Source: Squalus acanthias (Eukaryota). Taken from it: a stretch of DNA of 64,000 nucleotides. The stretch lies in NCBI GenBank assembly GCA_030390025.1, contig CM059453.1:6200001-6264000 (forward strand). Reading direction: 5' to 3'. Shown here piece after piece: positions 10,050 to 45,600 of the stretch (position 1 is its first letter; the number at the start of each line of letters is the position of its first letter). The translations under genes were made by a program, and so were the position numbers. The notes below the pieces were generated by a model. It did not search any database. It was not told the origin of the DNA and saw only the letters and a list, made by a program, of their open reading frames with translations.

Positions 10050-10760
10050 GTTCTATATATAAACCACCCGAACCCCTTGATTATATTCCAGCCTGTAACT
10101 CTCTCGCCGAGTATCCGTTATTCTTTATATAAATCCCGCGACTCCTCGATTAGAATCCAGCCTGTAACTCTCTCCCGGGTGTCTGTAATTCAACATATAA
10201 ATCCTCCTCCGAACCCTTAGATTAGATTCCAGCCTGTAACTCAATCAAAAATGTTATTCTGTATATAAATCACACGAACCCCTCGATTAGATTCCAGTCT
10301 GTAACTCACTCCCGGGTATCTGTTATTCTATATATAAACCCCCCGAACCCCTCAATTAGATTCCAGCCTGTAACTCACTCCCGGGTACCTGTTATTCTGT
10401 ATACAAACCACACTGACACACCTCGATTATATTCCGATCTGTAACTCACTCCCAGTTATCTGATATTCTTTCTATAACACCGCCCTCTCCCGAACTCCTC
10501 GATTAGATTACAGACTTTAACTCACTCCCAGGTATCTGTTAGTTTATATATAATCACACAAAACCACTCGATTAGATTCCAGCCTGTAACTCAGTCCCGA
10601 GTAACCGTTATTCTACATATAAACCACCAAAACAATAGATCAGAATCCAATCGCGAAGTCATTGTTGGGTATCTGTTAATGTACACATAAGCGATTCGAA
10701 ACTCTTCGTTAGATTTCAGCCTATGACCTACATTTAGCTATCCTTTTCCCTACTTATAAA
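10050..10760. repeat. ~65-75-bp minisatellite (tatataaaccacccgaacccctcgattagattccagcctgtaactcactcccgggtatctgttattc), ~10-11 copies
   Basis: The ttccagcctgtaactc core recurs near 10086, 10156, 10227, 10292, 10361, 10432, 10509 and 10577, decaying towards the right end. Confidence 0.95.
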
Positions 10761-12524: not shown

Positions 12525-12712
12525 NNNNNNNNNNNNNNNNNNNNNNNNNNNNNNNNNNNNNNNNNNNNNNNNNNNNNNNNNNNNNNNNNNNNNNNNNNNN
12601 NNNNNNNNNNNNNNNNNNNNNNNNNNNNNNNNNNNNNNNNNNNNNNNNNNNNNNNNNNNNNNNNNNNNNNNNNNNNNNNNNNNNNNNNNNNNNNNNNNNN
12701 NNNNNNNNNNNN
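12525..12712. other. Assembly gap (188 N)
   Basis: Run of N. Confidence 1.
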
Positions 12713-16237: not shown

Positions 16238-16405
16238 TCACTTATGCTTCATTGCTGCATATTCGCAGGTCTCCTCATTTTGAATATATTGATCATGTTT
16301 GCGGAAGTTTGAGAAATTGACGGTCGCGTACACAATCTCGTCATTCTGAGCTGGTTTAGTCGATTGAGCGGCGCCATGACCAGCCTCTGTACACTGATGG
16401 TCCCT
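16238..16405 (-). CDS. Gene A exon 8: terminal cytoplasmic exon with ITIM IVYATV and distal motif TCEYAAM
   Basis: cctttcgttacag|RDHQCTEAGHGAAQSTKPAQNDEIVYATVNFSNFRKHDQYIQNEETCEYAAMKHK*; homologous to 2305-2472 and 39503-39644. Confidence 0.88.
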   Translation of the reverse strand, partial: RDHQCTEAGHGAAQSTKPAQNDEIVYATVNFSNFRKHDQYIQNEETCEYAAMKHK

Positions 16406-22400: not shown

Positions 22401-25400
22401 TTGAAAATATAAACCGAACAGGTTTCAGAAGAATGAAAGTTAAAATGGATAATGCCGACGCAACCTTTCAGTTGCTGATTGACCACTGATCGAAAGAGGT
22501 CCTTACACTAATTAGAGATAGATTCAGTATGGACCTGCTTAATGGAGCTGGTATTTGCTGAAACTAACACCGTTCAGTTAGTGACTGACTATGATGGACC
22601 AACTCCCTTATAGTATTAAATTACAGACAATTTAAACATGTACCCTTAGAGTGGAGCTGGTATTTGCTGACAGAATCACCGTGCTCGTTTGCTGCAACAC
22701 ATGAGAGCAGGTTTCCGGTTCCGGTTGGGTGAGTGAATCTCAGGGAGCTCTCCATGAGGTGGCTTTTCACCGCCCAGGAGATGATATCCACATCTGACCT
22801 GTCCCCAGTGAGCCTTCTCCCGTTGAGGCACCACGTGATGTTTCCCGGCGGATTGGCTCTGATCCGGCAGCTACAATTCGTCCAATTCTCTGAGCTGGTG
22901 CATTTCGGGCCTATTAAAATTTTGGGTTTATCTAGAAAAAATGGAAACTTCAAAAGGAAATGATCATGTAAACAGTTGCAGTTTCGAAATACAATTAAGT
23001 AATGACTTGAACTAACGTAATAGTTCTGGTTGTTATATTTTAAGAAGTAGCTTTCATATGTTGCACCAGTTGAAGGCTTATTATATTTTCACGTATAAAA
23101 GGTGAGCTCGTTAGGAACAATTTCATATTAAGTCCAATGAGTGTTCAGTCCATCAATACCTCTCCTGACAGATGTTGTGAGGGACCCTCAGACGGAGCTA
23201 GCTCAGAGTTTTGATTATGTATAATATACCCACAAACGTGTCTCACCCGTCACTGTTTTAAAAGGTCAAGTCATTTAAATTTCTTCACTTTGTTTACTAT
23301 TTTAAACATCTTCATTTGTGGTGGACTTACGTGATTCTTCAATAAACGTCCGGCTAACAGGGCGACACGTCAAAGAAACAAGTCTCGGAATGTTACACAA
23401 TTAACTCCATATTATAACAAGTAATAGGAGTTGGCTTAACACCATGTTATCACACTTTTTTTAGAGAGAATTTGTGCTCATCAAACTGCTGCAAATCAGT
23501 TCTAAGTATTGGAAAATTCTTTATTTCATACTACGAGTATTATTTGTGAACAATTAGCTATAGAATAAAGGTCACAGTAAATGTGCTCCTGTCGCAACTG
23601 CATAAATGTATGAACTGCTGCATTTATGCCACAATGTGCCATCTTCCACTCCTGTCATACTGAGCGAGATGCCAGGTTAGTTTCCATTATTGGAGCCAGA
23701 GAGGTAGTTTGCCGCTATTTCCGCGGGAAGGGGTGAAACTATCCCGAACTCATGCACATGTGCACCTTAAAGCAAGCAGGCAAGAGAAAATTGGAATTTA
23801 ATCCAGAGTTCGTGAAATGAAAGGCTACTATCTAATTGGTAACTTAATACATACTTACATTGTACTGAAATCTGTGTGGAGCAGTTGGCGGTGCATAAGG
23901 CATTTTCAGCTATGCACCAATATTCATTATCGTCCTCAGAACGAATGTTGTGGAATATCTGCTTTAGTTCACCAGTGGAAGACCTGCTGGTCTCTTCACC
24001 ATTTTTCAACCAACTTAAACTGACCTGGGGTTTTTCCCAGGCCGTGCAGTATAATAATAATGAACTTCCTTCCACAGCTACTATAGAGGAGTTAATTGTT
24101 TGGATTTCCAGTCCATCTGAAACAGGCGTTAACGCAAAACGGGATTGCTTAATAAGCATAATTAAGCTCCGAATTAATTCATTATATTGGGTATGGGGAT
24201 CAGACGGGTAATTGGAGTTGAGTTCGATATTCCGCCATGATTGCCGGAGTGGCGGAGCAGGCTCGAAGGGCCGTATGGCCTACTCCTGTTCCTAATTCTT
24301 AAGTTCGTATTAAGCCCAACGAGAGCTGAGATCTGGTGTCATAGCTTCAGATCCTAACTCGGCATGGCTTTTGTTGCTTCCATGTCTGATTGATTAACTC
24401 AGAACTTGACTGGAAGTTCATAGAATAAAGATTAACTATCACGTTAAAAAATCTGTTGGAGGCACCATCATTGATTCATGGATATGAATGTCTCAAATGT
24501 AATACGACTGATGCGAATTAGAGGAGAGCCATCCCGAACCATTGATTATCGAATTGAGCTCCCCTGGTACAGAGGCTGAGCGTTTCATGATGCATTCTTT
24601 GATGCAGTTCTAATCACTAATAAATTACTTGTGGTAAAAGTGCAAATGTTTTTCCCCTTGGCATAAGTCTGTTTACTTTAGACCGGACACTTAGTGCAAT
24701 TTGTCACAGAGTGCAACTCGGAACAGAGTGTTAAGGTGCGAGTTTGGTTAGTGAGGGAGTTCGGGGAGGGAGGTGTTCCTTTCTTTTTCTATCTTTGTCA
24801 GCGTTCAGGAGAGCAGGAGCTAAAAAGCTGCACAAGAGCGGACAGAAAACCAGCGGGAGTTCGGCTCTGTGACACCCCCCAACCGGATCTGCAGAAAAAT
24901 AAAAGTTCAGTTCAAACAGAGTGCTGCGAATTGGGAATTGGTTCCTACTTTACACAAAGGAAAGAGTCCGAGAGCAGGAGCAGTCAAACAACAACAACTG
25001 CGAAAACGCTAAAGTGACTTCATAAACAGGGAAGGTGCTGATTGGTATCGAGGACCTGGTGAGTATTTGTACAGTCCAGTCGTTCAGGTAAAGTAAGATC
25101 TCTAGTTTAGAGTAAGTAGTATTTAAAGGGAAGTAAGGTCCCTAGTGTATTTAATATTCGTTCAAATAAAGTAAGTAAATGGCGTAAATTAAGGGTAGGG
25201 CGTGGCAGGGCAGGTCGGCAGCGTGAAGTGCTCCTGCTCTGCTCTGTGGGAAGTCAGGGACACTTTAGGTGTCCAAGGCGAACACATGTGCAGGAAGTGT
25301 CTCCAGCTGCAGCTACTGGAAATCCGCTTTTCGGAACTGGAGCTGCGGCTGGAGTCACTGCGGAGCACCCGCGAAACTGAGATCTTCCTGGATAGCACGT

Positions 25401-28400
25401 TTAACGAGGTGGTCACACCGAAGGTAAAGAGTGTCCAGGCAGACAGGAAATGGGTGACCGCCAGACAGAGTAAAAGAACTAGGAACATAGTGCAGGATTC
25501 CACTGGGTCCATCTACCTCTCCAACAAATTTTCCATTTTGGATACTGATGGGGGAGATGGTTGCTCAGGGGAATGCAGCAAGAGCCAAGTCCGTGGTACT
25601 ACGAGTGGCTCAGCTGCACAGGAGTGGGGGAAAAAGAGTGGGAGAGCAATAGTTTTAGGGCATTCTATCGTAAGGGGAACAGAGAGACGTTTCTGTGGCC
25701 GCAGACGTGACTCCAGGTGCCTATGTTGCCTCCATAGTGCCAGGGTTAAGCATGTCACTGAAAGGCTGAAGGACTTCTGAAGGGTGAGGACGAAAAGTCA
25801 GAGGTACTGGTTAACATTCTTACCAACGGCATGGGTAGAAAGATGGATGAGGTCCTGCAACAAGAATTTGGGAAGCTAGGTATCAGATTAAAAAGCAGGA
25901 CCTCAAAAGTTGTACTCTTGTGATTACTCCCGGTGCCACGTGCTAGTGAGTATAGGAATATGTGGGTAGAGCAGATGAAAGCGTTGCAAAAGAGTTGATG
26001 CAGGAGGGAGGGCTTTAGATTCCTGGATCACTGTGTCTGCTTCTGGGGAAGGTGCGACCTGTACAAGTAGGATGGTTTGCACTTGAACAGGAACTGTTCC
26101 AACATCCTTGCGGGGAGGTTTGCTAGTACTGTTGCGGGTGGGGGCGGGGGGGAGTGTGCAAGGTTAAACTTATTCGGCAGTGGGATGGGATACAGAGCGG
26201 ATCTATAGTAGGGGGTGACGCACAGCCAAATATACAGGAAAAAACAAGTTAGCCTGCAGAGCAAATATATGACGGCACATGGGAGTATGGCAAGGCTGGA
26301 TGGCATTTGTTTTAATGCAATTAGACTTGCGAGTAAGGCAGATGAATTGAAGGTGTTGATGAACACTTGGGAGTATGATATTGTTGTTATCACAGATACA
26401 TAGTTAAGGGAGGCGCAGGATTAGCCGCTCAATATTCCAGGGTGTAGAATCTTCAGGCGAGAAAGAGGAGGTTGTAAAAGAGGAGGGGTTGTCGAAATAT
26501 TAATCAAGGAGACAATTACTGCTGTAAGGTGGGATGATATCTCAGCAGGTTCCTCTAATGAGGCTATATTGGTAGAATTTAAAAACAAAAAGGGGGCAAG
26601 CACTTTGCTGAGAGTGTACTAAAGGGCCCCATACAGTGAGGTGGAGAAGAGGAACAGATATGTAGGGAAATCTCAGAAAAGTGTAGAAATAATAGGATAA
26701 TAACAGTAGGGGATTTCAACTTCCCCAGTATTAACTGGGATAGTCCGAGTGTGAAAGGCTTAAAGGGTGCAGATTTCTTAAAGTGAATCCAGGAGAGCTT
26801 TTTGAGCCAGCATGTAGAAAGTCCGACAAGAGAGTGGGCGGTACTGAACCTAATTCAAGGGAATGTAGCCGGGCAAGTGGTAGAAGTGTCAGTAGGCGAG
26901 CTTCTTGGTGACAGTGACGATAATTCGGTGAGATTTAAGGTAGTTAAGGAAAAGAATAAAGATGGACCTGAAATAAAGGTTCTAATTGGGGGAAGGCCGA
27001 TTTTAATATGATAAGGCAGGATGTGGCCAAAGTGGACTGGGATCAGCTACTTGTAGGAAAAAACACATCAGAGCAGTGGGAGTCTTTCAGAAAGGAAATA
27101 CAAAGTACACAACGCCAGCATGTTCCCGTAAAGGTGAAGGGTGAGACCAACAAGCCGAGGGAACCCTGGATGACAAAGGATATACAAGAATGGATTAGGT
27201 AAAAGAGGGATGCTTTTGGCAGACACAAAGGACAAATAACAGTGGAAGCCCTTGAGGAGCATATAATGAGCAGGGGGTACTTCAAACAATAAATTAGGAG
27301 AGCGAAGAGGGGGCATGAAAATACACTGGCGGGCAAAATAAAGGAAAATCCCAAGATGTTTTATAAGTATATTATGGGCAAGAGGATAACGAGGGAAAGA
27401 GTAGGGCACATTAGGTACCAAAGTGGAAATCTGAGCGTAGAGCCGGAATATGTAGGTGAGGTTTTAAATAAATATTTTGCAGCTGTGTTTACGATGGAGA
27501 AGGCTGATGTAGGTATAGAAATCAGGCAGGGGGATATACTTGAACAAATTAGTATTGAGAGGGAGGAGGTACTAGCGGTTTTAGCGGGCTTAAAAGTGGA
27601 TAACTCCGCAGGCCCTGACGGGATGTATCCCAGGGTACTGTGTGAGGCAAGGGAGGAGATTGCAGGGGCACTGACACAAATTTTCAGAACCTCTCTGGCC
27701 ACAGGGGAGGTGCCAGAGGACTGAAGAACAGCTAACCTAGTACCATTATTCAAGAAGGCTAGTAGGGATGAACCAGGGAATTACAGGCCAGTGAGCCTAA
27801 CATCGGTGGTAGGGAAATTATTGGAAAAAATTCTGAGGGACAGAATTAGACCCCACCTGAAGAGGCAAGGATTAATCAAGGATAATCAGCATGGCTTTTG
27901 TCAGGGGTTATCGTGTCTAACCAATTTGATTCAATTTTTCGAGGGGTTGACTAGGTGTGTGGATGAGGGAAGTGCAGTTGCTGCAGTCCACATTGACTTC
28001 AGTAAGGATTTTGACAAAGTCCCTCATGGGAGACTGGTCAAGAAGATAATAGCCCATGGGATCCTGGGCAATTTGGCACATTGGATCCAAAATTGGCTTC
28101 GTGGCAGGAGGCAGATGGTGATGGTCGAAGGTTGTTTTTGTGACTGGACGCCTGTGTCCAGTGGTGTTACGCAGGGATTGGTGCTGGGTCCTTTGCTGTT
28201 TGCAGTGTACATGAATGATTTTCATATGAATGTAGGAGGTATGATCAGTAAGTTCGAAGATGACACGAAAATTGGTGGACTGGTAAATAGCGAGGAGGGA
28301 AGACTTAGGCTACAGGACGGTATAGAAGGGTTGATTAGATGAGCACAACAGTGGCAAAAGGAATGTATCCCTGAAAAGTGTGGGGTGATGCATTTAGAAA

Positions 28401-31400
28401 CAAAGAAACATAGAAGATAGGAGCAGGAGTACGCCATTCAGCCCCTCGAGCCTGCTCCGCCATTCAGCGAGATCATTGCTGATCATCCAAATTCAGTACC
28501 CTTTCCCTGCATTCTCTCCATATCCCTTGATCCCTTTAGCTTTAAGAAATATATCTAACTCCTTCTTGAATATATTTAATGAATTGGCCTCTACTGCCTT
28601 CTGTTGTAGAGAATTCCATAGGTTCACCACTCTCTGAGTGAAGAAATTCCTCTTCATCTCAGTCCTAAATGGCTTACCCCTAATCCTTCGACTATGACCC
28701 CTGGTTCTTGAATCCCCGGCCATCGTAATATCCTTCCTGCATCTAGTCTGTCTAGTCCTGTTAGAATTTTTGAAGTTTCAATGTGATCCCCTCTCATTCT
28801 TCTAAACTCCAGCGAGTATCAGCCAAATCGACCCAATCTCTCCTCATACAACATTCCTGCCATCCCAGGTATCAGCCTGGTGAATCTTTGGTGCACTTCC
28901 TCCATGGCAAGAATAACCTTCCTCAGAGAAGGCGACCAAATCTGCACACAATACTTAAGATGTGTTCTCACAAAGGTCCTCTACAACTGCAGCAAGATAT
29001 CCATTTTGGGAGGACTAATAAGTCAGGGGAATACACAATGAGTGCTAAGACCGTAGGAAGGACAGCGGATCAGAGGGACGTTGTTGTGCATGTATATATA
29101 TATCCCTGAAGGCAGCAAGAACGGTAGATAAGGTGTTTAAAAAGCCAGATGGAATACTTGCCTTCATTAGCCGAGGCATAGAATATAACAGCAGGGAGGT
29201 TTTGATGGAGCTATACAAATGCTATTTATGCCACAGCTGGAATACTGTGTGCAGTTCTATTCGCCACACTAGAGGATGGATGTGATTGCATTGGAGAGGG
29301 TGCAGAGGAGATTCATCAGGATGTTACCTGGGCTGGAGCGCTTCAGCTTTGAAGAGAGACTGGACAGGCTGGGGTTGTTTTCCTTAAAGCAGAGAAGGCT
29401 GAGTGGTGACCTGATTGAGGTGTACAAAATTATGAGGGGCATAGATAGGGTCGATAGAAAGGAACTTTTCCACTTAGTAGAGGGGTCAATAACCAGGGGG
29501 CATAGTCTCAATGTAAGGGGCAGGAGGTTTAGAGCGGATTTGAGGAAAAACTGTTTCATCCAAAGGGTGGTTGGAATCTGGAACTCACTGCCTGAAAGGA
29601 TGGTAGAATCAGGAACCCTCACAACATTCAAGAAGCTTTTAGATGAGCACTTGAAACGCCATCGCATACAAGGCTACGGACCAAGTGCTGGAAAATGGGA
29701 TTAGAATAGAGAGGGCTTGATGGCCGGCGTGGACATGATAGACCGGAGGGCCTCTTTATGTGCTTTATAACTGTATGACTTACATTTAATCTCCAAGGTA
29801 AAATTTTGTGCTGAAGGAGTTGTTATACCATCAATTAGAATTGTGCATCCCAGAATGTTCCCGTCATTAGCAGATGATGGTGTGAAGATGATCACGGATG
29901 AAACTGTCCGAGAACCTGAATTTTCATTGCTAATTTCTGCTCCATCTTGAGTATCCATGGCGGGAGGAAGGGACACATTGTAATTAATCCACTTCAGTTT
30001 CAGTTTGCCATCCGGGCAGTTGTGGGTGACAGAACAGGACAATCGTGCAGTTTGTCCAGCGGTCAATTCCCCATAACCTGCTATCTCTGGCTTTTCTATA
30101 ATAACGGGAGAAAACCATCTTGTTAGGTGCATTTCAATGTTAAAACGGGCGACTGATGGCTCACAACTAAATCTGAGAAAGAATTAACAAGACAATCATT
30201 TTTTTATTTTTTTTCTCTGCTACGTGTTGCAAGTTTGTTCTCCCTTCTCACTAACTCCTCGCAGATGTAATGTAGTTTTATGCCTCATCGGGTAACATGT
30301 GGCCCCACTTAATTAAACAATAGTCGTTATATCTCCTAAATTATTTTTATCATGGATATTCTCCAGTGAACCAATTTTACAGGCTGGACTTAGAATCAAC
30401 GTTAACTCCTCAAATGTCACGAATATTTCATCCTCTCTTATGATTCCTTCTGCACCAGTACCTCCCAATGTAATGGAGACTAATGCAGACCCAGAGAGAT
30501 CTCGATTCTGTTGCCAAGAAACTTCAATGGAGAACGACAATGTTCAAGAAAGGGACAGAACAGACAAAGGGCGGATAACATCGCCTTGTGCGGGAGCAAC
30601 AGGGCAGTTTCCTCTCTTGTAAATCTCATGAAGGCTTCAGCAGAACCAGCATTTTTGACGTGGGATTAGAATGAACAAATAAATTATAACTTGAACTGAT
30701 TTTCACGTTACTGTAATATCTACTTTTTATTTAAGATCTAATTAAAAGCGTGGTAAATGAGCGCTGGATAGCGAAAGGCACGAACAAAGATTGCATTAAT
30801 TCGGCGCCGTTTAACTCCTGGCGACATCAAAAGACGCTTCACCAAAAAGTAACTTGAAATGTAATCAGCCAGCCATTGTCGACGGTAAACACAGGAGATT
30901 ATTGGAGAATATATTAAGATATTTGGAATTAAGGATAATGTAGAAATTGCAAAATAAACTGTTTGCAAGGGACGATGCAGTCAGTGGCCGTTACGTGCAT
31001 TTCCTCAGAATGGTTGGATCTGAGTACGATGTCCCACGGGGCTGTGCTGTGGGATTGCTTTTACTCACTGTGTGCATCAATAATTTGGAGAAGGCGCCAA
31101 AGAGACTGAAGTCCAAATTTCCCGTTACGAGTTAATTGGATTCCAACAAAATGAAAATTGGACAGTGTGTACAATGAGAGGCGCATCCAATATCGCCAGT
31201 TTGACAACCATGACAAAGTTGCAAGTACAACTCCCAGGAAATAACTAGAGAACTAAAGGGAGTTACAAACGGATACTAGAGATATTGTAGAATGGGGACA
31301 TAAGAGGCAGATATAATTCAAGGTCAGAAAATATGAGATGGTAGATGTTAATTTGAACCGTAGGAATCTGGGAGATGTGGAAGAGCAGAGGAATTTGGGG

Positions 31401-33843
31401 TCAGTTTCATAAGACAGTAAAAGCAGCACCTCCAGTGGAAAAATGTATGAAAATGTTTCTGGAGCTCTGAGTTTAATGGCAGGAGATCTGTAATATAAAT
31501 TCGAGATTTTTGGCGATTCTAAAGAGAACAGTAGTTATTTCGCATTTGGAGTAAGAATACGGGTATTGGCCGCCAGTCTATAGGAAGGCTACAGGGCTGA
31601 TTCGCGTAGTTTCTGTCTGGTATGATGAAGTACAATTAGCAAGAAAGTATTTAAAAATTGAGGCAGATTTTATTAGGCTTCAACAGATTTTGGGATGATT
31701 TGACAGAAGTGCTTAAACTTTATAAGCAGCGGGACAGAGAAGATAGAAGCAGACTGAGATATAATTTGAAATGGCCGCCCTGGTTAAAACTGTCATTCCA
31801 GACAAGTCACCCATTCTAGCAACCAACCTAGTTCCATTACCTTTCATGTCATTGTAGCTAATGAGCTGTTGGTTTATGTATTGTAAGGTACGACCAACAA
31901 TGTCAGCTTCAGGTTCAGTCAACACTTAGTAAATCTATCCTCATGTGTACATTTCAGAATCGGCTCGACAGGTGTTGGAAGGGAATTGCAATAAAGGGAT
32001 ATGGGAACTGAGCAGGCACATGCGATTCGGAGTGTTGATCATGTGAAGGACAAACAGCAACACGGGCTGGCTGGACCGAACGGCCTGATTTACTGCTGTA
32101 ATTTCTATATACCTCTGTGCTTAAGATATGAATGCCTGCGTCTCTTATCAGTACCCCTGCCCGCTATATTTCCACTAATCTTAATATTCGGCCAGAGAAA
32201 TCAAAAAAAATTGCACACTTTACAAATAGGATGTGAAGGCCCTGAAGAGGGTGCAGAGGAGATTTACCAGAATGGTTCCGGCAGATGGGGGATCTTAGCT
32301 AATAGGATAGGTTGGAGAATCTGGATTTGTTTTCATTGGAGCAAAGGAGGTTGAGGGGTGATTTGATAGAAGTGTACAATATAATGACGGGTTTGGATAG
32401 GCTAGACGGGGAAAGGCTGTTCCCACTAGTTGATGGTACAAGGACCAGGAGACAGAGATTAAGGTTTTGGGCAAGAGATACAGGGGGAATGTGAGTAAAA
32501 ACTTTTTAACGCAGCGAGTGGTGAGGACCTGGAACTCGCTGCCGACGGAAGTGGTGGAAGCGGAGACACTCAATGTTTTCAAGGGGAGACTGGATAGGAA
32601 CTTGAGGGAAATAAACTTGCAGGGCTACGGGGATAGAGCGGGGAAACGGGACTGACTGGATTGCTCTAAAAAGACCCGGCACGCACTCGATGTGCCGAAT
32701 AACCTCCCTCTGTGCCGTTATAAATCTATGAATCTATGTTGATTCATACTAAAACAATGGAATAAAAATGTACAAGAAGAATAAATGGCAAACTCACCTA
32801 AAACAGAAAGAAAGACTTCAGAACGGGCAATGCGATGTGTAATAGAATTTCTGCCCGAGGTGATGGCTGTGATGAACTGATATGCACCCTGATCACGTTT
32901 TCGGACATCCTTTATCAGGAGGGAGCATTGTCTTTTTTCAAGATTGCCCTTGAACTCAGCTCTGCCAATATAATTATAATGCTGCCTGAATGGACCATTC
33001 GAATCATAGATAATGGATTCATTGGGTGTTCCAGGACCAGGTTCCCTCTTAATCCACCTCCCGTTCAGGTTGGCGATGTAGCCCATGTTCTCAAATTTAC
33101 ACGGGATCTCTGCACAAGAACCCAACACCGCCGACACATCTTTTGGCATCACCACAGAACATTGAACACTACAAAAGGCTGAGAAAATAAAAGATTAGAC
33201 GGCCTTTAAGTATCCATTCAAAAAGCATTGGAATTGCTTAAGCATCCATGAAATTGCTTGTTGATTGACTAAAAGCCTCCCAGCACATTAGCAATTTAAA
33301 TATCAGTTAAAGACTATTCAAAATCAATTAAAATGCTGACTAAATAACAATCGCAAAAATTATTGACATGTTCATTGGAATATATATTTGATAGTAGTTT
33401 TATCAACAAATAATATGTATATTTAAGACTCATCTGAAAACCGAACACATATCCACTAAGAAGCAAGTGAATGCCCTATAAAATCTTCATTAAATATAAA
33501 TTAAAATTAATATTAATTAGAATGAACATTACACTTCTATTGACTCTCCCTTGAATTACTCAATTAATATGAATTAGCATGCTATTAAATGTGCATTACA
33601 ATTCTCATTAAAGATAACTTGAAAAGCCCTATAATTAAATATTGTTTGAATAGGCAATCACATGCAATAAAACACTTATGGAATACCAACTCGCCGTTGC
33701 GACAATCAATTAAAAAAATTATTTTAGGTACTGTCCTGTTCTTTTCCAACCAGATATTAATCAGCTGTTTTAGAAATTAGTAAAAACGTAAGAAATGTAC
33801 CTTCGTTCAATACCATGAGAGAAACCAACAGGCAAGTCCTCAT
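16238..33843 (-). CDS. Gene A: Siglec-like (V-set + 3 C2-type Ig) inhibitory-type receptor, 543 aa; complement join 33801-33843, 32798-33178, 29784-30095, 23859-24116, 22644-22931, 21718-21811, 19247-19334, 16238-16405
   Basis: All eight exons have GT-AG boundaries, intron phases are 1,1,1,1,1,2,0 and the frame is open for 1632 nt. Siglec Cys pattern (GSCAEIPC..QCSLLI; D2 HNCP), uncharged TM and ITIMs. Confidence 0.88.
16975..17550 (+). mobile_element. Non-LTR retrotransposon 3' fragment (RT C-terminus, family distinct from the CR1 copies)
   Basis: AIYKVQVKSVMEYSPLAWMSAAPTTLKKLDTIQDKAARLIG; tail cagcggttcaagaaggcggctcaccacca..aataaatgctggccttgccagcgacgccc. Confidence 0.8.
17800..18460 (+). 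mobile_element. Old degenerate CR1 3' fragment (gene A intron 7)
   Basis: Remnants such as FFLAQRVVIWNALP and a CR1-type tail. Confidence 0.7.
19247..19334 (-). CDS. Gene A exon 7: cytoplasmic exon with ITIM VIYSTV
   Basis: ttattgttcag|(R)KKQGEAARVTEAHDNLVIYSTVHKAVNTD|gtaagt; phase 2 in and phase 0 out fit the flanking exons. Confidence 0.87.
19441..20610 (-). mobile_element. CR1 LINE 3' fragment specific to gene A intron 6
   Basis: Minus-strand SGVPQGSLLGP, SKFVDTKL, RRNFFTQRVV; ends in (ttcttatg)n tail. Confidence 0.92.
21718..21811 (-). CDS. Gene A exon 6: transmembrane (no charged residue)
   Basis: cattttag|GIFSTTIVLIIGGGATGLVILIAVVLMLKIQ(R)|gtatgt. Confidence 0.92.
22644..22931 (-). 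CDS. Gene A exon 5: membrane-proximal Ig domain
   Basis: tttttctag|YKPKILIGPKCTSSENWTNCSCRIRANPPGNITWCL..SCVAANEHG..LHSK|gtacat. Confidence 0.92.
23859..24116 (-). CDS. Gene A exon 4: Ig domain 3
   Basis: gtttcag|YGLEIQTINSSIVAVEGSSLLLYCTAW..W..DDNEYWCIAEN..ISVQ|gtaagt. Confidence 0.92.
24700..29780 (+). mobile_element. Near full-length decayed CR1 LINE (5'UTR, ORF1 zinc-finger/SGNH esterase, ORF2 APE endonuclease + RT) in gene A intron 3, antisense to the gene
   Basis: ORF1 CSCS..CRKC..LE, IVLGHSIVRG and DGLHLN. ORF2 YDIVVITDT, GDFNFP, SGVTQGLVLGP, SKFEDDTK and CFIQRVVGIWNSLP. Many stops. Confidence 0.95.
28396..29001 (-). mobile_element. CR1 3' fragment nested inside the intron-3 LINE
   Basis: Flanked by CATTT duplication (28391-28395, 29002-29006); minus-strand KRNFFTQRVVNLWNS. 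Confidence 0.9.
29784..30095 (-). CDS. Gene A exon 3: C2-set Ig domain 2
   Basis: ttattatag|EKPEIAGYGELTAGQTARLSCSVTHNCPDGKLKLKW..GNILGC..LEIK|gtaagt. Confidence 0.93.
30950..31720 (+). mobile_element. Very old LINE RT remnant (paralog at ~51640-52380)
   Basis: gtcccacggggctgtgctgtgggattgcttttactc..atcaataatttgg is a decayed [16 protein letters not shown]. Confidence 0.5.
32220..32735 (+). mobile_element. CR1 3' fragment in gene A intron 2
   Basis: LFSLEQRRLRGDLIEVY, NFLTQRVVRTWNSLP; tail tctatgaatctatg. Confidence 0.9.
32798..33178 (-). CDS. Gene A exon 2: Siglec-type V-set domain
   Basis: ttttctcag|AFCSVQCSVVMPKDVSAVLGSCAEIPCKF..W..YDS..GRAEFKGNLEKRQCSLLIKDVRKRDQGAYQF..LSVL|gtgagt. Confidence 0.94.
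33801..33843 (-). CDS. Gene A exon 1: signal peptide
   Basis: gcaATG MRTCLLVSLMVLNE G|gtacat, phase 1. Confidence 0.85.
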
Positions 33844-33959
33844 TGCTGGAAAAGCAGCAGATTTCACTCTTAAAATGAAGAAGTGTTTCACAATTAAGAC
33901 CATTCAGGTTTTTGCATTCTTCTTCCCAGTCACATCTTGGATTTTTTTGCTAATCAACA

Positions 33960-34450
33960 TCAGACTTTCGGGGAAGTCCGATTCGGTTCCTACCGATGTG
34001 TCGGAACAGTGCTCACTCACTCAGCTCCGTAGCTGAGGTAGGCAGCCAGCACATCATGTACATGGGCTGCTTGTGACCGACTGTTACTGAATATGCTGTT
34101 AAAGCATGTCTAACAGTTGCTGAAGAATACTTAATACAGAAACAACATCTCACTCTCTCACGCACAAACACACAAAGGTACTGTTATTTATGATATAAAT
34201 AATTGGAGTCTGCGACAGATTGGCACCGCCCACGCTTGCAGGCGCCTCTGACTCACATTTCACACACATTCAGCTTTCTGGCAGCTAATACGAGCTGAAT
34301 GTTGCAGAGGTTTGACTTCAGTTAGTTAGCTTGCTGCAGTCTGTAGCCGTGTGGTTTCGTCACCTTCATTAATAAGCGCTCCAACATGCATCTCTGACGT
34401 CATAGATAGGAGCTGTTTGACAGTAAACCGTTTGACTCTGTGGTAAAGAG
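33960..34450 (-). promoter_or_regulatory. Candidate promoter/enhancer of gene A (ETS/PU.1-like, AP-1, RUNX and CRE motifs)
   Basis: GGGGAAGT 33970-33977, TGACTCA 34249-34255, TGTGGTT 34350-34356, TGACGTCA 34395-34402; all retained upstream of gene B. Confidence 0.4.
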
Positions 34451-34839
34451 ACTTGTTTCCAATTTAATTACATTCACGGACAAGCTCTCTAAATTATCGA
34501 AATTAACTAAAAATTCATCTCTATTTGCAGCAGTACTTTTTTTTGTTGAAAATTTTGACATGAGGTCTGGGACCTGTGAAAAGAACGCGAGGTTTCTGTC
34601 ATAAATGCAAACACCGCTAGAAAATACATAGCTTAAAGTGATTGAAACAACTGGTCCTGCAAACTGATCAGTGAGCTACAAACCTGGAGGCGTGTAACAG
34701 GCGGCCGATCCGATATCCCATTTTCTACCCTCCTGATCAAACGTTACATGAATCCCCCATAATTCCCACCGGCTATTATCACGATTAGTTAGGTTTAGCC
34801 TTGGAATATCACAAGCTTTAGTTCAAATTGCGACACAAA

Positions 34840-35540
34840 TAAAATGGCCCGGACTTTCCAGGGCCTATTTCGAGATACACACAGCATACGCGACCGTAAG
34901 GGCCCCGCATGTTCTGTGTTTCCACTTGCAATGTCCATGAGCTAAAACACGGAATTTGCGATCTGTCAACATTGTCCTTGTCAGATCGTACCCAACCGCA
35001 GGAAATGGACATTCGCTGGCACAGAGTAGGGTTATTTGCCAACTGCTGCCCAGCGAAAGCCCACGAAACCCATACGCCTAGTAAAAAAAGGTGTAACACC
35101 TTCTTTAAAAAACATAAGAGCTTAAATATATATATATATTAAAATATATGTTTTTCAGCTATGTAACTATACAAAGATAGTTAAAGTTAGCTTAGGTTAT
35201 ATTTGCCCCTTGAAAATGTTTAGATTTATTTTTCAAAAAATTAATTTTTGTTTCAAATGTTTAAGTAAATTGTATTTTGATTAATTTTGACCATGAGATG
35301 ATATATTTTTATTTCAGTGTGTTTTTTAGGTGATTTCTAAGATGCTTTTGGGGATTTTGTCCGTAAATGGAATTCTTTAAGCACAATGGGAAAGCCCCAT
35401 TTGATAGGTTGGGCTAACCCATCTGATCCCAGGGAGGCTTATGAACCGCATGCGCTCCTGGGATATGTGGGCTATACACAGGCGTACGCCTGCAGGCTCA
35501 GGGCCGCAAGAGTCGGAAGGTGCTGAGGCACCAGGTAGGT
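34840..35540 (+). mobile_element. Putative MITE-family copy (paralog ~55510-56205)
   Basis: gcgatctgtc..gacattcgctggcacagag..ggttatttgcc block shared with 14200-14320. Confidence 0.55.
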
Positions 35541-35950
35541 GCAGAGTTTAAAATAACAACAGAAAATGCTGGAAGCACTCAACAGGCCAGGCAGCATCCG
35601 TGGAGAGAGAAACAGAGTTAACGGTACCCGGTCTTGGACCTTTCATCAGAACTGGAAGAGGCGAACGGTGTAACAGATTTTAAGCAGGTGCAGAGGCAGA
35701 GAAAGGGGAGGGAAGAGGAGGAAGGAACTAAATGTATATTATGTGCTAAGGTAGGAGGAAGGAAAGATTAAATGTTGCAAATGGGGATGGCAGAATCATA
35801 AACAGCCTGAAAAATGGTGGCAGAGCTTATAGCCTGAAACTGTTGAAATCAATGTTGAGTCCAGAAGGTTGTAAAGTGCCTAATCGAATGATGAGGTGCT
35901 GTTCCTCGAGCTTAGGTTGAGCTTCATTGTAAGGTGCCGAGGACAGCGAG
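35540..35950 (-). mobile_element. Penelope-like 3' fragment (paralog ~56205-56620)
   Basis: Reverse complement of 4190-4680 (aatgttgagtccagaagg..gtgcctaatcgaatgatgaggtgctgttcctcgagctt). Confidence 0.8.
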
Positions 35951-36899
35951 ATCAGACTTCACTTGATGTTGGGAGGCTTTCGCCCTTGAGAAGACTCCAA
36001 CCACAATTTCCAGCCCAATAAGTCAGTGCAAACATCAGGCAGTTTATTGAGTTAGTCAACTGTATCTCCGCTACGAGTGTCCACCTCTGCCCTTCGTCGT
36101 TTTTTTCTTGCTGAGGACACCAGGACCGCTCAGTAGGTTGCAATTTGAAGTCAATGCTGTAAGTCACCAGGTGTGCTACGTTTTCTGTGTCCGCTTCACC
36201 ATTAATAACTGAATGTCTCTTTATAAATGAGGCTGGCATTCTTCCTTAAGAAATCGCCAATGTTGTGAAAATTAAAGAACATTGATGATAAAGATAGGCG
36301 GACAATGAGCCACATTGAATTAGTGAAGTTTGTGCAGTTCTCATTGGTCTTTGGATTCTTCTCCTTGACACAAAGGACAGAATGACTTTTTGCTCTTATT
36401 ACTGAGAGATATGAGCATCAGTCTGTGTAATAAAATGACAACCAGTGAGATGGGTAGCATTGGTCAATAAAACTAAGAGATAGAAAGGGATGAAAACCTC
36501 TTAGAATATTTTAGCACCTGAAATGAACAGCAGCCCCATGACTAAATTGCAGTCAGAAGCAGTCACGTGCCCAGAATAGAGCAGCAGCTTGTGTAAAAGA
36601 GTAATGTTGATCAGGAAATTGTTTACCAAAATATAATACAGCGAGAATCTTCCCACTATATGGACACTGACCGTGCAACATATATACCAGAGGGAATCTT
36701 CCAACTATATCTGCAGTTCCCTTTCCTCAAATAGATTAGAATGAATGCTCCCAATATTTCTAAACTCTCTACTACACAGATACCAGAGGGAACCTTCCCA
36801 CGATATACACAGTATCCCTACCATGAATAGATTAGAATGAAACTTCCAATTATTTGTACACTTCCCCTACAACACAGAGACAAGATGAAATACTTCAAG

Positions 36900-37165
36900 T
36901 ACATAAGAACATAAGAATTAAGAGCAGCAGTAGGCCATACGGCCCATTGAGCCTGCTCTGTCATTCAATAAGATCGTGGCTGATCTTTGACCTCAACTCC
37001 ATTTTCCAGCCTGATCCCCATATCGCTTGATACCACTCGAGTTTAAAATTCTATCGATCTCAGCCTTGAATATTTTCAACGATTCAGCATCCACAGCCCT
37101 CTGGGGTGGAGAATTCAAAAGATTCACAGCCATCTGAGTTAAGAAATGTCTCCGTATCTCAGTCT
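36900..37165 (-). mobile_element. CR1 3' fragment cut at the duplication junction
   Basis: Matches 57450-57713, then stops abruptly after ..atctcagtct. Confidence 0.85.
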
Positions 37166-38948: not shown

Positions 38949-39502
38949 TACTGGAGTACTGCTTGCAGTTTTGGTCTCCTTATTTCAGGAGGGATATACT
39001 TGCATTGGAGGCAGTTCAGAGATGGTTCACTAGGTTGATTCCTGGGGTGAAGTGGTTGTCTTATGAGGAAAGGTTGAGCAGGTTGGGCCTATACTGAATG
39101 GAGTTTAGAAGAACTTATTGAATCATATCAGATTCTGAGGGGGCTTGACAGATGGGATGCATAGACGATGTTTCCCCTCGTGGGGGAATCTATAACTAGG
39201 GGGCATAGTTTCAGGATAAGGGGGCGCCCATTTAAGACTGAGATGAGAAGGAATTTATTCTCTCAGAGGGCCATGAATCTTTGGAATTCACTACCCCAGA
39301 GAGCTGTGGAGGCGGAGTCATTGAATATATTCAGGGAGGAGATAGACAGATATTTTAAATACTGGGGAGTGAAGGGTTATGTTGAGAGAGCGGGAAAGTA
39401 GAGTTGAGGCCAAGATCAGATCAGCCATTATCTTATTGAATGGCGCAGCAGGCTCGAGGGGCCGAATGGCCTTCTCCTGCACCTATTTCTTCTTTTCTTA
39501 TG
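38949..39502 (+). mobile_element. CR1 3' fragment inserted at the ancestral stop codon of gene B's terminal exon
   Basis: LEYCLQFWSP, RRNLFSQRAMNLWNSLP; CTTATG duplicated at 38943-38948 and 39497-39502. Confidence 0.92.
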
Positions 39503-39596
39503 TTTAATTGGTGCCTAATCGCAGGTCTTCTTATTTGGGCTATATGCTTCATGATTGCGGAAGTGTGAGACATTGACAGTCACGTACACAATTTCT

Positions 39597-39644
39597 TCAT
39601 TCTGAGCTGGTTGAGTCGATTGCGGGGCTCACGTGATCGTCTCT
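39597..39644 (-). CDS. Gene B exon 8: frameshifted terminal exon (RDDHVSPAIDSTSSE*)
   Basis: cttccgttacag acceptor is homologous to A. It has 22 nt versus 39 nt in A before CAATCGACT, so the IVYVTV remnant is out of frame. Confidence 0.72.
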   Translation of the reverse strand, partial: RDDHVSPAIDSTSSE

Positions 39645-42600
39645 CTGTAACGGAAGACATTCGTCTTAGATATAGAGTTATTGCAAATTTAGAGCTGAAC
39701 ACGATGGGAGTGCGCTGTCTGCACCAGAGCAAAGCTAACTATTTAATCTCTGGTAACTTTTCCAATGGAGCTCATTCATGAGATATGCGTTTTTAGGTCT
39801 TGATGGAAGAAATAAATAACATCCAAATTGCGGCTCAGCACCATATTTTCAAGGGCAATTAGGGATAGGCAATAATTGCTGTCATTGCCAGCGACGCCCA
39901 CATCCCAGGAACGTTTTAAAAAAACAATCCACAGCGTCCGTCGATATACTTCACTCTCAGTGGCTAGTCCTCCCTTAAAAACACTAGTGACCAAATTTCT
40001 GAAAGTCCCATTTATCTATTGGGATTTTGCCTGTTCTGGTTCACTCGCTCGTTGAAAACACAACAAAAATCCTACAACTGTCACTCCAGATTGGCTTCAC
40101 TTACCTCAACGTTTAGATCCCCAGTGTACACCAGCGCACCACTAGCTGTTTTCGGCACACATGCAGTCTCACTGCTCTTCTTCCTAAAAAATAACAAATA
40201 ATAGATAATCGATAACTTAAATGTTTACTGAATGTATACTGTGAAGGACGTCCGTAGGTCAGGAGAGACAGATGTCTTTTAGGTTTTCCGATTAGCACAG
40301 ACCACGTCCGCTCTCCAATTATTTTCAATTTACATCTGCCTGCATTTTAAAAGGGAACTGTTGACTTTATCAATGAAGCTCGTTAATGGCGCGGTGTTGC
40401 TTGCTCATGTTGAAAGCTGATTGTGCTGTTTGGACATAGGAGGATCATTCAATATGTTAACACCTTATTAAGTAGCAGATGGAAGAGTTTCAGCGTGCAA
40501 ACACATTATAATCTATGATTACTAGAGCTATAACCCTTTCATTTAGTGCATTTCAAATGCTAACCACTTTTTGCTTAACAAAAGTTTGTCCAGATGTCGC
40601 ATTTGGTTGATTTGCCAATCGCCTGAAACCTGTGCATCTGGTTAACGACATTTGAGGCATTGTAATCAATTTATCGTTATTTACTTTATCTAAATCCTTC
40701 ATGATTTTGAACATATCTATCAAATCTCCTGTTAGCCTTCGCTGCTCTAAGGACAACAGCCCCTGCTTCTCCAGCCTATCCACATCACTGTAATCCCTCA
40801 TCCCTGGAACAATTCCAGTAAATCTCTTCTGCTCCCTCTCCAAAACCTTCACCTCATTCCTATAGCGTGGTGCCCAGAATTGTACACAATACTCCAGCTG
40901 GGGCCGAACCAATGTTTTCTATAGGTTCAGCACAACTTGCTGCTTTTGTGCACTGTGCAAATATGTATAAAGTCCAGGCTTCCATAATCTTTATTGACTG
41001 CTTTGTTCAACTGTCCTGCCAATTACAAATTGTCGTGCATAAGCAGCCCAACGTCTCTCTGTTCCCGCACCAACTTTAAAATTGTACCATTTAGCATGTC
41101 TTGTCTCTCCTCATTCTCCCTACCCAAATCTAACACCTCACAATTTTCTGTGTTGACTTTCATCTGCCATGTGTACACCCATTCCATCAGCATGTCTCTG
41201 TCCAAATGAAGTCTATTACAATCTTCCTCACTCTTCACTACACTTCCACGTTCGGTGCCATCTGCAAAGTTCGAAATTGTGCCCTGTACCCGCAAGGCCA
41301 AGTCATTAATATATATCAAAATTTGAGTGTGAAATGGGGAATACATCAATGTTCCCTTGAACCACGTTGAGATCCTTCCTCAGTATCTCTGAAAGAAGCT
41401 TTTATATATTAGTTAGCATGGAATTGGCATCTTTAATACTGACATGGTACAAGAAGGGTTATAATCGAGCACCACTCACAAGAGTGTTCTAACTCATCTT
41501 GTTATGTTTGTTGCCGAATCATTGGCTGTTGTGGAGGGCGTCCACCTGAGGAGCCCGTCACTGATTTCAATTGTAAACATCGTTTGTGATTTGTTGAAGA
41601 GTAATTTTGGTTTGCAGCAGATTGTAAACCGAATAGATATAATTGGAATTCACTTGGAGCCATTCATCTCCTTGAAGCTAATTATCAGCCTATCCATTAT
41701 AAGCGGGGATTCTGTCGAGAGCATTCCGTGAGAGCTCGTCAGACCAAATAGATTAAGTCACTGGTAAGAATAAGATAACCATCCCAACATAAATAATCGT
41801 TTAGATCATACTTTAGCACATCAGTCACACCCAATTTTGAAACATAATATTCTACTCCTGCAGCCAAACAAACTGAACCACTACTGTAAACATGTGTGTC
41901 ACGTTAATTGTACTATTTGTTTGTTGTTTTACAGTTTGCTGGACTTGCTTGATTGTTAGAATTTAAAATCATTCAGGTTTAGTGTTATGCTGGGAACCTG
42001 ACATGGCAAGGAGGCTTGTGTGAGGGTGCCCCGTAAAAACAGCAGCAGAAACTAACTGAACGGGTTTCTCTGTCCATTCTTTGAGAATACTGCGAATTTT
42101 ATCTAGATTACACGTTAGTTGAAAACAATCCCTGGCACATAGCACCCCAGGGATCAGAAGTCCAAAAATGTCAGTTTAAACATAAGCAACAAACCGCAAT
42201 AATATAACAAGAAGAATGCACAGATACCCTCATTCAAGTAGACACTAATATTACTCCATAGCTGATGCTGGGAGATGCGGGCGACTGGTCAGGGGACGAT
42301 TGACCCACCTCGTTTCCGCTTCGATTCAGGCAGGTGCTCACTCTGCTCACAGGAGATTAATTTCAACGAGCTTTTGATACAAGGAATTTCTGATGCAGGA
42401 TCCCCTTTAAAACTCCATTTTATGTAATTAGGAATCACTCATACCTTTGTATCTTCAGCAGGAGCACGACTGCAATTAGTAACACAATCCCAGTGGCTCC
42501 TCCTCTTATGATGAGAAGAATTGTCCTGGAGAATATTCCTAAAAAATTGCAAAGAAACATTGCTGTACCTTAGGGAATTGGATTTAAACAACAATCTTCG

Positions 42601-45600
42601 AAGCACATTTATGAGTGTGAGGTATCAAGTTCCCTTTATGTTCGGATCGGAAAGCTAATGGAAAGTGAAACACTCCACTTGTCTCAAACTTGCGTAAAAG
42701 CATTTTATTCATGTGTTGTGGCCTGGCGTAAATTTGAAATAAATAATTTAAGATTCGCTGGTGTAAAATTGAAAAATTAAGTTTACGCGACAACACACCC
42801 ACGGAAAAACAGTGGGCATAAACCAATCTGAATACCGGCCCGCCAAGGTCACCAGTTACAGCGGTAAGATTTATAATCTTTTGAGAAAATTCAGTTTCAC
42901 ATAGGTAATTAAATATCGGCTTTACATACTTAAATGAGTCTGAACAAGATAGAAATGAGCATGTACATACAAAAGGGTAGATTGCAGTTTGCTATCCTGT
43001 ATTAAGAGTAATTTGGATTTTCTAAAGGGTTTATCTTAATTCAGAGGAATTTGTATTCCAAGATCACTGGCTATTTCTGGTGTTCAGATAATTTCATCAT
43101 ATGTAAAAATATAAAACTAGCCAGTTTCAGAAGACTGAAAGTTAAAATGGATAATGCCGACCACACCTTTCAGTTGGTGATTGACCACTGATGGAAAGAG
43201 GTTCTTACACTAATTCGAGAGAGATTCAGTATGGACCTGCTGAATTTAGGTCGTATTTGCTGACACTAACACCGTTCAGTTAGTGACTGACCAGAGATGG
43301 ACCAACTCCCTAATAGTATTAAATTACAGATAAATTAAACACATACCCTTCGAGTGGAGCTGGTATTTACTGACAGAATCACCGTGCTCGTTTGCTGCAA
43401 CACAAGAGATCAGGTTTCCGGTTCCGGTTGGGTGAGTCAATCTCAGGGAGCTCTCCATGATGAGACTATTCACTGCCCAGGAGATGATTTCCGCATCTGA
43501 CCTGTCCCCAGTGAGAATTCTCCCATTGAGGCCCCACGTGATGTTTCCCTTGGGATTGGCTCTGATCCGGCAGTTACAATTCGTCCAATTCTCAGAGCTG
43601 ATGCATGTCGGGCCTGCTAAAATTGTGTGTTTATCTAAAAAAAATGGAAAATGCAAGAGGAAATGATCATGAAAACAGTTGTAGATTCGAAATACAATTA
43701 AGTAATGAGTTGAACTAACCATCATGGTTCTGGCTGTTATATTTTAAGATGAAGCAGCCGATGTTGCACCAGTTCACAGCTTATTATATTTTCACTTATA
43801 ACTGGTGAGCTCGTTAGGAACAATTCCATGTTAAATAAATGAGTGTTCAGTCCATCAATACATCTCGTGACAGATGTTGTGAGGGACCCTCAGACCGAGC
43901 TAGCTCAGAGATTTGATTATATGTAATATACCCAGAAAGGTGTCTCACCTGTCACTGATTTAAAAGGTCAATTTATTTCAATGTCTTCACTTTGTGTACT
44001 GTTTTAAACATCTTCATTTGTGGTGGACTGACGTGATTTTTCAATAAACGTCCGGGTCACAAGGCGACATTTCAAAGAACCAAGTCGCGGGAATATTACA
44101 CTATTAACTCAACGTTAATACAAGTAACAGGAGTTGTCTTAACATCATTTTATCACACTTTTTTTGGAATGAATTTCTACTCATCAAATTGCTGCAAGTC
44201 AGTTCTAATGATTGGAAAATTGTTTATTTCAGACGACGAGTATAATTTATGAACAATTAGTTGTAGAGTAAAGGTCACAGTAAATGTGCTTGTGTCGCAA
44301 CCTCATAAATGCAAGACCTGCTGCTTTTATGAGACATTGTGCCATATTCCACTCCTGTCATACTGAGCGAGATGCCAGGTTAGTTTCCATTATTGGAGCC
44401 ATCGAGGTAGTTTGCCGCTATTTCCGCGGGAAGGGGTGAAACTATCCCAAACTCATGCACATGGTCGCCTTCCAGCAAGCAGGCAAGAGAACATTGGAAT
44501 TTAATCCGGAGTTCGTGAAATGAAAGGCTACTCTCTAATTGATAAATTAATACATACTTACATTGTACAGAAATTTGTGTGGCGCGGTTTGTGGTGCCTA
44601 GGGCATTTTCAGCTATGCACCAATATTCACCGTCGTCCTCAGAACGAATGTTGTGGAATATCTGCTTTAGTTCACCAGTGGAAGACCTGCTGGTCTCTTC
44701 TCCATTTTTCACCCATCTTAAACTGACCAGGGGTTTCCCCCAGGCCGTGCAGTATAATAATAATGAACTGCCGTTCACAGCTACTATAGAGGAGTTGACG
44801 GTCGGGATTTCCAGTCCATCTGAAACAGGCGTTAACGCAAAATGTGATTGCTGAATAAGCATAATTAAGCTCCTAATTAATTCATTATACTGTGTAGAGG
44901 GATCGAGTGGGAAATTGGAGTTGATTTCGATGATCAGCCATGCTTGCCGGAGTGGCGGAGCAAGGTCGAAGGTCCGTATGGCCTAATCCTGTTCCTCATT
45001 CTTAAGTTCTTATTATGCCCAACCAGAGCTGTTATCTGGTGTCCGAGCTTCAGATCCTAACTCAGCATGGATTTTGTTGCCTCCATTTATGACTGACTAA
45101 ACTCAGAACCTGACTGGAAGTTCATAGAATAAAGATTGACAATCACTTTAAAATATCTGTTGGAGGCACCATCATTGCTTGATGGATATGAATGTTTCTA
45201 ATATAATCTGACTGATGAGAATTAGATGAGAGCAATTCCGAACCATTGAGTATCGAAGTGAGCTCTCCTGGTACAGAGGCTGAGTTTTTAACGATGCATC
45301 CTTTGATGAAGTTCTAATCCATAATAAATTACTTGTGGTAAACGTGCAAATTTTGTGCCCGTTGGCCGACAGGATAAGTCTGTTTACTTAAGACCGGACA
45401 CTTCATGCAATTTGTCACAGAGTGCAACTCGGAACAGAGTGTTAAGCTGCGAGTTTGTTTAGTGAGGGATTTCGGGGAGGGAGGTGTTCCTTTATTTTTC
45501 TATCTTTGTCAGCTTCCAGGAGAGCAGGAGCTAAAAAGCTGCACAAGAGCGGACAGAGAACCAGCGGGAGTTCGGCTGTGTGACACCCCCCAACCGCATC

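Follow-up and report, generated by a model that had tools for sequence, protein, structure and literature searches.

Genes A and B of the Squalus acanthias window

We identified two predicted Siglec-type genes, known here as A and B, in a 64,000-nucleotide stretch of Squalus acanthias DNA (assembly GCA_030390025.1, contig CM059453.1, positions 6,200,001 to 6,264,000 of the forward strand), which is referred to as the window and is numbered from its first letter. The V-set domain of each has the Siglec fold and carries isoleucine at the position of the arginine required to bind sialic acid, and the canonical sialic-acid site appears to be lost from both. The models were assembled from coordinates, and each consists of eight exons (leader, V, D2, D3, D4, transmembrane (TM), tail 1 and tail 2) with GT-AG sites and open frames, giving predicted proteins of 543 residues for A and 500 for B. 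Four of 11 public runs (X1, X5, X8 and X6), all consisting of contigs, showed no exon joint, which speaks neither for nor against expression. Both genes lie on the minus strand and form a head-to-tail tandem duplication, in which self-comparison matched 21670-37165 with 42397-57713 and found weaker similarity further downstream.

In gene A, the predicted leader exon (33801-33843) is followed by the V-set exon at 32798-33178, a phase-1 exon bounded by AG/CC at 33178 and G/GT at 32798. D2, a C2-type domain with the interdomain cysteine in HNCP, is encoded at 29784-30095, D3 at 23859-24116 and the membrane-proximal immunoglobulin (Ig) domain D4 at 22644-22931. An uncharged TM exon (21718-21811, with the glycine codon GGA at 21779-21777) precedes cytoplasmic exon 1 (19247-19334), which encodes the ITIM (immunoreceptor tyrosine-based inhibitory motif) VIYSTV, and the last coding exon (16238-16405), which encodes the ITIM IVYATV and the distal motif TCEYAAM. 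Gene B has its predicted leader at 54461-54503 and its V-set exon at 53458-53838; the V protein is 91% identical to that of A and carries the same Ile (53533-53531), Cys and Arg substitutions. The exons for D2, D3 and D4 lie at 50445-50756, 44562-44819 and 43347-43634, and the TM exon at 42445-42538.

Siglec fold and sialic-acid-binding positions

The V exons of A and B both matched the V-set family and the CD22-like first Ig domain (Ig_CD22) above the Pfam cut-off, and their top PDB sequence matches by phmmer were sialoadhesin (E 1.4e-10) and then MAG. An AlphaFold2 model of the V domain, based on a 35-row alignment (predicted local distance difference test score, pLDDT, 84.9 overall and 74-75 around the F-G hairpin), was superposed on sialoadhesin with a Z score of 17.4 and a root-mean-square deviation of 1.7 A over 111 aligned residues, and on MAG with a Z score of 17.2. 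Foldseek was in agreement, and V identity to sialoadhesin and MAG was about 25-28%. This structural comparison, proposed as a check in a preliminary description made from the DNA letters, gave a clear fold match with changed binding positions. The Siglec fold marks named there were found as well: GSC..IPC, the Cys of strand E and, in D2, HNCP. By sequence, Cys26 and Cys84 would form the B-E strand pair, aligning with cysteines of sialoadhesin and MAG, with no cysteine on strand F, and V Cys21 and the Cys of HNCP are the predicted interdomain V-C2 cysteines in both A and B.

The central claim of the preliminary description, that both V-set domains lack the essential Arg, was confirmed. In the phmmer alignment against PDB, the Ile of A and B (ATC, 32871-32873 in A) falls without gaps on the F-strand Arg of sialoadhesin (Arg97 in alignment numbering) and of MAG, within the motif DQGAYQFI in A and DEGAYQFI in B. 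At the N-terminus, the reported Trp-to-Cys change also held up, since Cys6 of QCSV (TGT, 33161-33159) lies on sialoadhesin Trp2 and MAG Trp22 in a structural alignment anchored at its ends (residue 5 of the model matched to residue 1 of sialoadhesin, and model 3-126 to MAG 19-138). Arg115 (CGC, 32832-32834 in A) falls on MAG Tyr127 in the same alignment, provided strand G is gap-free, and its column in the multiple alignment holds Tyr in MAG-like rows and Trp in one sialoadhesin-like row. The absence of an aromatic residue from strand G, noticed at first for A, can be extended to B, which has Arg (CGC) at the same position and whose THRIFRS Phe lies two residues away from the aromatic site and offers no rescue. 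This G-strand register comes from end anchoring and the multiple alignment, and a one-residue shift would place His at the aromatic position. Thus, A and B by sequence have the V-set fold, the B-E Cys pair and the interdomain Cys of Siglecs, and lack the F-strand Arg, the G-strand aromatic residue and the N-terminal Trp.

In MAG, ganglioside binding was abolished by R118A and by Y127A, each alone (PMC5150538), and the accessible part of a review, which makes no mention of sharks, describes the Arg as present in virtually all Siglecs (PMC13358205). Since the two MAG mutations each abolish binding, and A and B are altered at both positions as well as at the N-terminal Trp, the sequences strongly imply that canonical sialic-acid binding has been lost, and it is very likely that canonical sialoside binding is absent in A and B. 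Judged by their sequences, A and B are Siglec-derived receptors, not Siglecs in the lectin sense, because the defining Arg is absent.

An annotation or assembly artefact, whether a misaligned register, an uncollapsed haplotype or a sequencing error, could produce such a picture, and the dependence of the G-strand register on end anchoring and the multiple alignment speaks in its favour. However, the F-strand alignment is gap-free within the DxGxY motif, and the Ile is no sequencing slip because it occurs in both paralogues, is common to other species and is unchanged in an independent public contig (run X1, over 32742-32937), whose five differing letters all lie outside the Ile codon. Uncollapsed haplotypes were rejected since the A and B tails differ by about 22%, far above haplotype level. 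We therefore regard an artefact as highly improbable.

Distribution of the changed site in sharks and rays

An exhaustive homologue search returned 262 matches at E <=0.001, of which the best 150 were used together with later matches. A filter on length and score was passed by 202 of 394 domain matches, giving 204 V domains with A and B included and with isoforms and repeated domains counted separately. The F-strand position was Arg in 133 of these, so that the Ile of A and B is not a matter of chance, and Ile in 20. A tree was built from 61 of these rows, without isoforms, partial domains and one near-copy, and in it A and B fell inside a 17-row clade with support of 100/95, in which the F-strand residue is Ile in 12 rows, Ser in two, Thr in two and Leu in one, and Arg in none. 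Besides A and B of the window, this clade covers eight shark species (genera Heterodontus, Scyliorhinus, Stegostoma, Chiloscyllium, Carcharodon, Cetorhinus, Heptranchias and Pristiophorus) and two rays (Narcine and Hypanus). Its nearest sister, P0008, keeps the Arg, and the sister lineages are Arg-bearing. In a 42-row tree from which three trait columns had been removed, the clade was recovered at 92/95.

The simplest reading of these trees is a single Arg loss before the shark-ray split, which is roughly 250-300 million years old. The preliminary description was thus borne out in part: canonical loss is strongly implied, but the loss appears ancient and clade-wide and is not peculiar to the A/B pair. 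Three further independent Arg losses (to Ala, Lys and Thr) were found in the sister part of the family, and the surprise is tempered because Arg loss is common in these fish receptors.

The tree keeps the A/B family apart from the MAG, sialoadhesin and CD22 rows (99/98), and the MAG rows form a separate starred clade. A and B do not group with MAG and have the equivalents of Arg118 and Tyr127 changed, and thus do not qualify as MAG (Siglec-4) orthologues. In V-only trees, which contained no named mammalian CD33-related row, the A/B family was a clade of its own whose sister was not resolved. All named close relatives are shark or ray proteins, and no chimaera protein was present among the named rows (30 looked up plus the word-index matches), most matches of the exhaustive search being unnamed. 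The family is undersampled by word-index protein searches, which gave 1, 22 and 3 matches, one of them missing some members of its own alignment.

Column counts were made over 15 clade rows, with B and one near-copy left out. All 15 keep the V framework (Cys26, Trp41, Tyr57, Cys84, Asp95, Gly97 and Tyr99). Among the non-window clade members, 10 of 15 have ITIM-type tails, three have a TM segment without ITIM and two have no TM segment in the record. These inhibitory tails, kept across sharks and rays, argue for working receptors. The columns of the front face vary strongly among the clade rows, and V is the most divergent domain relative to most shark clade members. The 15 rows were also examined for one new, conserved front-face motif that might mark a ligand site, and none was seen. 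A basic patch as a clade-wide trait was rejected, as V net charge, +6 in A and B, spans -4 to +12 in the clade, much like the Arg-bearing rows.

The N-terminal Trp position is Cys in eight of the 15 rows and Trp in one. The Cys at this position (33159-33161 in A and 53819-53821 in B, minus strand) has no evident partner, and P0001 and P0002 lack it and have a Cys on strand G instead. A disulfide-linked dimer through the N-terminal Cys is possible on this evidence.

The G-strand aromatic column holds Arg in five rows, His in four, Lys in one and another residue or a gap in five, with no Tyr, Trp or Phe. This column bears on the idea of a rearranged anion site, in which the Arg of strand F and the aromatic residue of strand G would have exchanged roles (Ile on F and Arg on G, often with Tyr one residue earlier), and an anionic glycan or lipid, sialic acid or another, would be bound in a shifted mode. 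The preliminary description had suggested a shifted G-strand Arg, and the part of it that stood is that an Arg coincides with the aromatic position in A and B and is found there again in four other shark and ray rows of the clade (5/15 plus one Lys, B being outside the 15). Counted from the C-terminal anchor, this position is Arg in only 1 of the 132 domains that have the F-strand Arg, and in 13 of the 70 that do not, although isoforms and near-copies are included and these counts are not independent. The net charge of A and B would suit such a site, and Siglec-6 provides an example of Arg-independent sialoside binding (PMC10122656). Nevertheless, the G-strand Arg is missing in 10 of the 15 clade rows, the charge of the clade is no different from that of Arg-bearing rows, and the F-G region of the model has a pLDDT of only about 74-75. 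In addition, the G-strand Arg sits where MAG has the residue that stacks on the glycerol chain (PMC5150538). We consider a rearranged anion site unlikely, though it is the main rival to the reading favoured below.

A and B as a probable receptor pair, and known systems

The tail of A, with its two ITIMs and distal Tyr motif behind an uncharged TM segment, is of the CD33-related type, and that of B is not. Recruitment of SHP phosphatases by A is inferred from these motifs. Gene B has lost all three Tyr motifs, each by a separate lesion: a net 9-nt in-frame deletion in cytoplasmic exon 1 (40105-40183) has removed the first ITIM, leaving LVYTGD; a net 17-nt deletion shifts the frame of the last coding exon (39597-39644), which ends at a TGA stop (39599-39597) upstream of the old second ITIM; and the old distal Tyr codon is now TAG. 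A repeat at 38951-39503, which resembles other copies in the window and which we take, with these relatives, to be LINE-like, lies inserted where the old last exon of B ends. The TM segment of B carries Gly439Arg (AGA, 42506-42504), a single G-to-A change that is derived in B relative to 5 of 5 outgroup rows. With its modelled tail, B accordingly has the features of the paired-receptor partner, no ITIM and a basic TM residue, and A and B look like an inhibitory receptor and its non-inhibitory twin.

Non-coding identity between A and B falls stepwise from 5' to 3'. It is 94.5% (8445/8937) across the upstream region, leader, V and D2, the most recently homogenised zone (27258-37165, matching about 47917-57713); 88.3% (4200/4756) from D3 through D4 to TM, the older homogenised zone (21670-27257, matching about 42397-47916); and 77.5% (1457/1880) in collinear stretches of the tail. 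The zone borders were set by eye. Such steps are the pattern of gene-converted paired receptors with near-identical ligand-binding ends, and unequal crossover would yield a similar one. Purifying selection between A and B was detected over D2-D4 (ratio of nonsynonymous to synonymous differences per site, pN/pS, 0.54, p=0.015) and over D2-TM (0.51, p=0.004). Polarised changes in the ectodomain number 26 A-derived and 13 B-derived, and those in TM and the first tail exon 5 and 17, respectively. In D3, 7 changes are A-derived and 3 B-derived; conserved Gly positions of A's D3 have been changed non-conservatively and two new Cys have appeared. D3 is missing altogether from several clade members, and A's D3 exon may be dispensable.

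Other Siglec-type sequences were also found in the window. A broken paralogue at 617-2463 (plus strand) has a D2 lacking the F-strand Cys and a D3 interrupted by two stops, and its last exon keeps an ITIM but carries a stop in place of the distal Tyr; neither a D4 nor a TM exon was found within 617-2463. Upstream of B, an older paralogue remnant at 58638-58925 and 60259-60324 (minus strand) includes a D4 with stops and a D3 fragment, and is about 70% identical to A and B at the nucleotide level. An orphan Siglec-type last exon at 8951-9110 (minus strand; NTYASV and SEYAAI) is out of frame with its apparent acceptor and has no upstream exons that we could find. The window further contains tandem repeats at 3089-3572, 10051-10623 and 36676-36885, with periods of 33, 69 and 96, and an N gap of 188 bases at 12525-12712.

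Taken together, we favour a reading in which a non-canonical ligand is bound by both receptors, A responding by recruitment of SHP phosphatases and B without inhibiting, and hold it with moderate confidence; that the ligand is non-sialic seems probable in its own right. Under this reading, an elasmobranch subfamily of Siglec-derived receptors would have lost the canonical sialic-acid site once, before the shark-ray split, and kept its immune-receptor work. The variable front face of A's V domain would bind something other than a canonical ligand, with a protein or other non-sialic surface structure of host or microbial origin as the most likely candidate, and A would inhibit via its two ITIMs and distal Tyr motif, presumably through SHP-1/2. 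Gene conversion would hold the ligand-binding end of B nearly identical to that of A, with a tail unable to inhibit, and B would either activate through an adaptor with an ITAM (immunoreceptor tyrosine-based activation motif) recruited by the TM Arg or compete for ligand as a decoy. A precedent is the group B streptococcal (GBS) beta protein, which binds the V domain of Siglec-5 independently of sialic acid (PMC2722167).

For B, activation is quite possible though short of an even chance, and a silent decoy or a decaying copy each appears less probable than that. Activation is favoured by two proteins of the Arg-keeping sister group. P0100 of Mustelus asterias has a TM Arg and a short tail, and its accession adjoins that of the ITIM-bearing P0012, to which it is 77% identical and whose contig equals its own in length; P0100 may be a fused gene model. 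P0031 of Cetorhinus maximus has a TM Arg and a tail without Tyr. P0012/P0100 and P0031 are possible independent receptor pairs in that sister clade.

Several observations weigh against the favoured reading. At 92/95 the clade falls below the star threshold and loses its star once the trait columns are dropped. The V domain itself has a pN/pS of 0.91 between A and B (12 nonsynonymous and 4 synonymous changes), which differs neither from neutrality (p=0.53) nor from the other domains (p=0.56). An Arg on strand D is kept in 14 of 15 rows and probably matches Arg92 of Siglec-6, which binds sialylated glycolipids without the canonical Arg (PMC10122656), and Arg-mutant chimpanzee Siglec-5 did not bind the GBS beta protein (PMC2722167). 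As for activation, the TM segment of B reads L-I-I-R and lacks the NxxR motif that has been tied to coupling with FcR-gamma (PMC2413239). The clade members P0003 and P0164 join a basic residue near the TM start with ITIM tails; the TM Arg is therefore not diagnostic, and was rejected as proof, of activation. An in-frame AG just upstream of B's old ITIM could in principle restore that ITIM. Lastly, decay is common at this locus, as the window holds three broken paralogue remnants.

These remnants also bear on an escape without replacement, in which the site was lost to evade sialylated pathogens, inhibition is tonic or recruited in cis without a trans ligand, and B is a decaying or silent duplicate. 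The high variability of the former binding face without any shared new motif, the divergence of V and its pN/pS near 1 are all in keeping with such an escape, and humans commonly carry null alleles of activating Siglecs (PMC6288428). However, sharks and rays alike have retained the V framework (15/15) and the ITIM tails, the ectodomain of B is more conservative than that of A, and the V-D2 end is the most alike part of A and B, which can be understood only if a ligand common to both is important. Escape without replacement is therefore, in our view, even less likely than a rearranged anion site.

A broader and more tentative proposal, which we consider rather doubtful as a whole, is that of an old, expanded cartilaginous-fish subfamily that dropped the site before the shark-ray split, rebuilt the face for another ligand class (partly through a transfer of the Arg from strand F onto the aromatic site of strand G) and ran its members as gene-converted inhibitory/activating pairs. 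If true, these receptors would branch more deeply than any other paired ones of Siglec type, and could serve as a natural test of pathogen pressure driving Siglecs off sialic acid permanently. Arg-bearing sisters (e.g. P0008, P0171 and P0012) and Arg-less members of the same genomes provide material for direct comparison.

Sialoadhesin and MAG, whose V-set domains are the best sequence and fold matches of A and B, differ from them by the lost binding residues and by tree position. The elasmobranch RefSeq proteins named 'sialic acid-binding Ig-like lectin 8/13/14', 'MAG-like' and 'Schwann cell myelin protein-like' are true relatives, with V domains 33-61% identical and with the architecture and tails of A and B. 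Our comparison flags the automatic RefSeq names of many shark 'sialic acid-binding lectin' proteins as unsupported by sequence. A second Siglec-like family in rays and sharks (P0004, P0014, P0026 and P0034) has several tandem V-set domains, is mostly Arg-bearing, and in some cases, going by contigs of equal length, appears to share chromosomes with the A/B family. According to the accessible part of a teleost study, which does not mention sharks, fish have no inhibitory CD33-related Siglecs (PMC7226832), and the ITIM-tailed shark and ray receptors qualify this teleost-based statement. In the part of the whale shark genome paper available to us, Siglecs are mentioned once, in passing (PMC8455134). 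No study of shark or ray Siglecs was found in the literature searched, with subscription papers and supplements outside its scope. Arg-less, paired and gene-converted Siglecs are already known from great apes; the age and breadth of the loss described here were not found in that literature.

Among these ape receptors, Siglec-5 consists of a V and three C2-type domains, and Siglec-14 has a TM Arg. Great-ape Siglec-5 and Siglec-14, like A and B, are an inhibitory and a non-inhibitory receptor with near-identical, gene-converted N-termini that both lack the essential Arg (PMC6288428). Unlike A and B, in which the loss is clade-wide and extends to the Trp and the G-strand aromatic residue, they lost the Arg by point change within primates, and orthology is not implied. 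Siglec-14 signals through DAP12, whereas an adaptor for B is hypothetical. Human Siglec-XII (R122C) is another ITIM-family Siglec without sialic-acid binding, and it is expressed (PMC6288428). Siglec-XII is human-specific and drifting toward null alleles, whereas the A/B state is common to sharks and rays and the family has expanded. Siglec-11 and Siglec-16 resemble A and B in that gene conversion has homogenised their 5' regions and their tails are opposite (PMC5701461). However, they keep the Arg, bind sialic acid, lie head-to-head and are converted over about 3 kb, compared with about 10 kb plus 5.6 kb in the head-to-tail A and B. Overall, the Arg-less Siglecs of primates are point losses that have often been interpreted as decay, and in sharks and rays the site is missing across the shark-ray split, yet the fold, the ITIM tails and the paired twins are kept, which suggests that giving up sialic-acid binding can amount to a lasting change of ligand.

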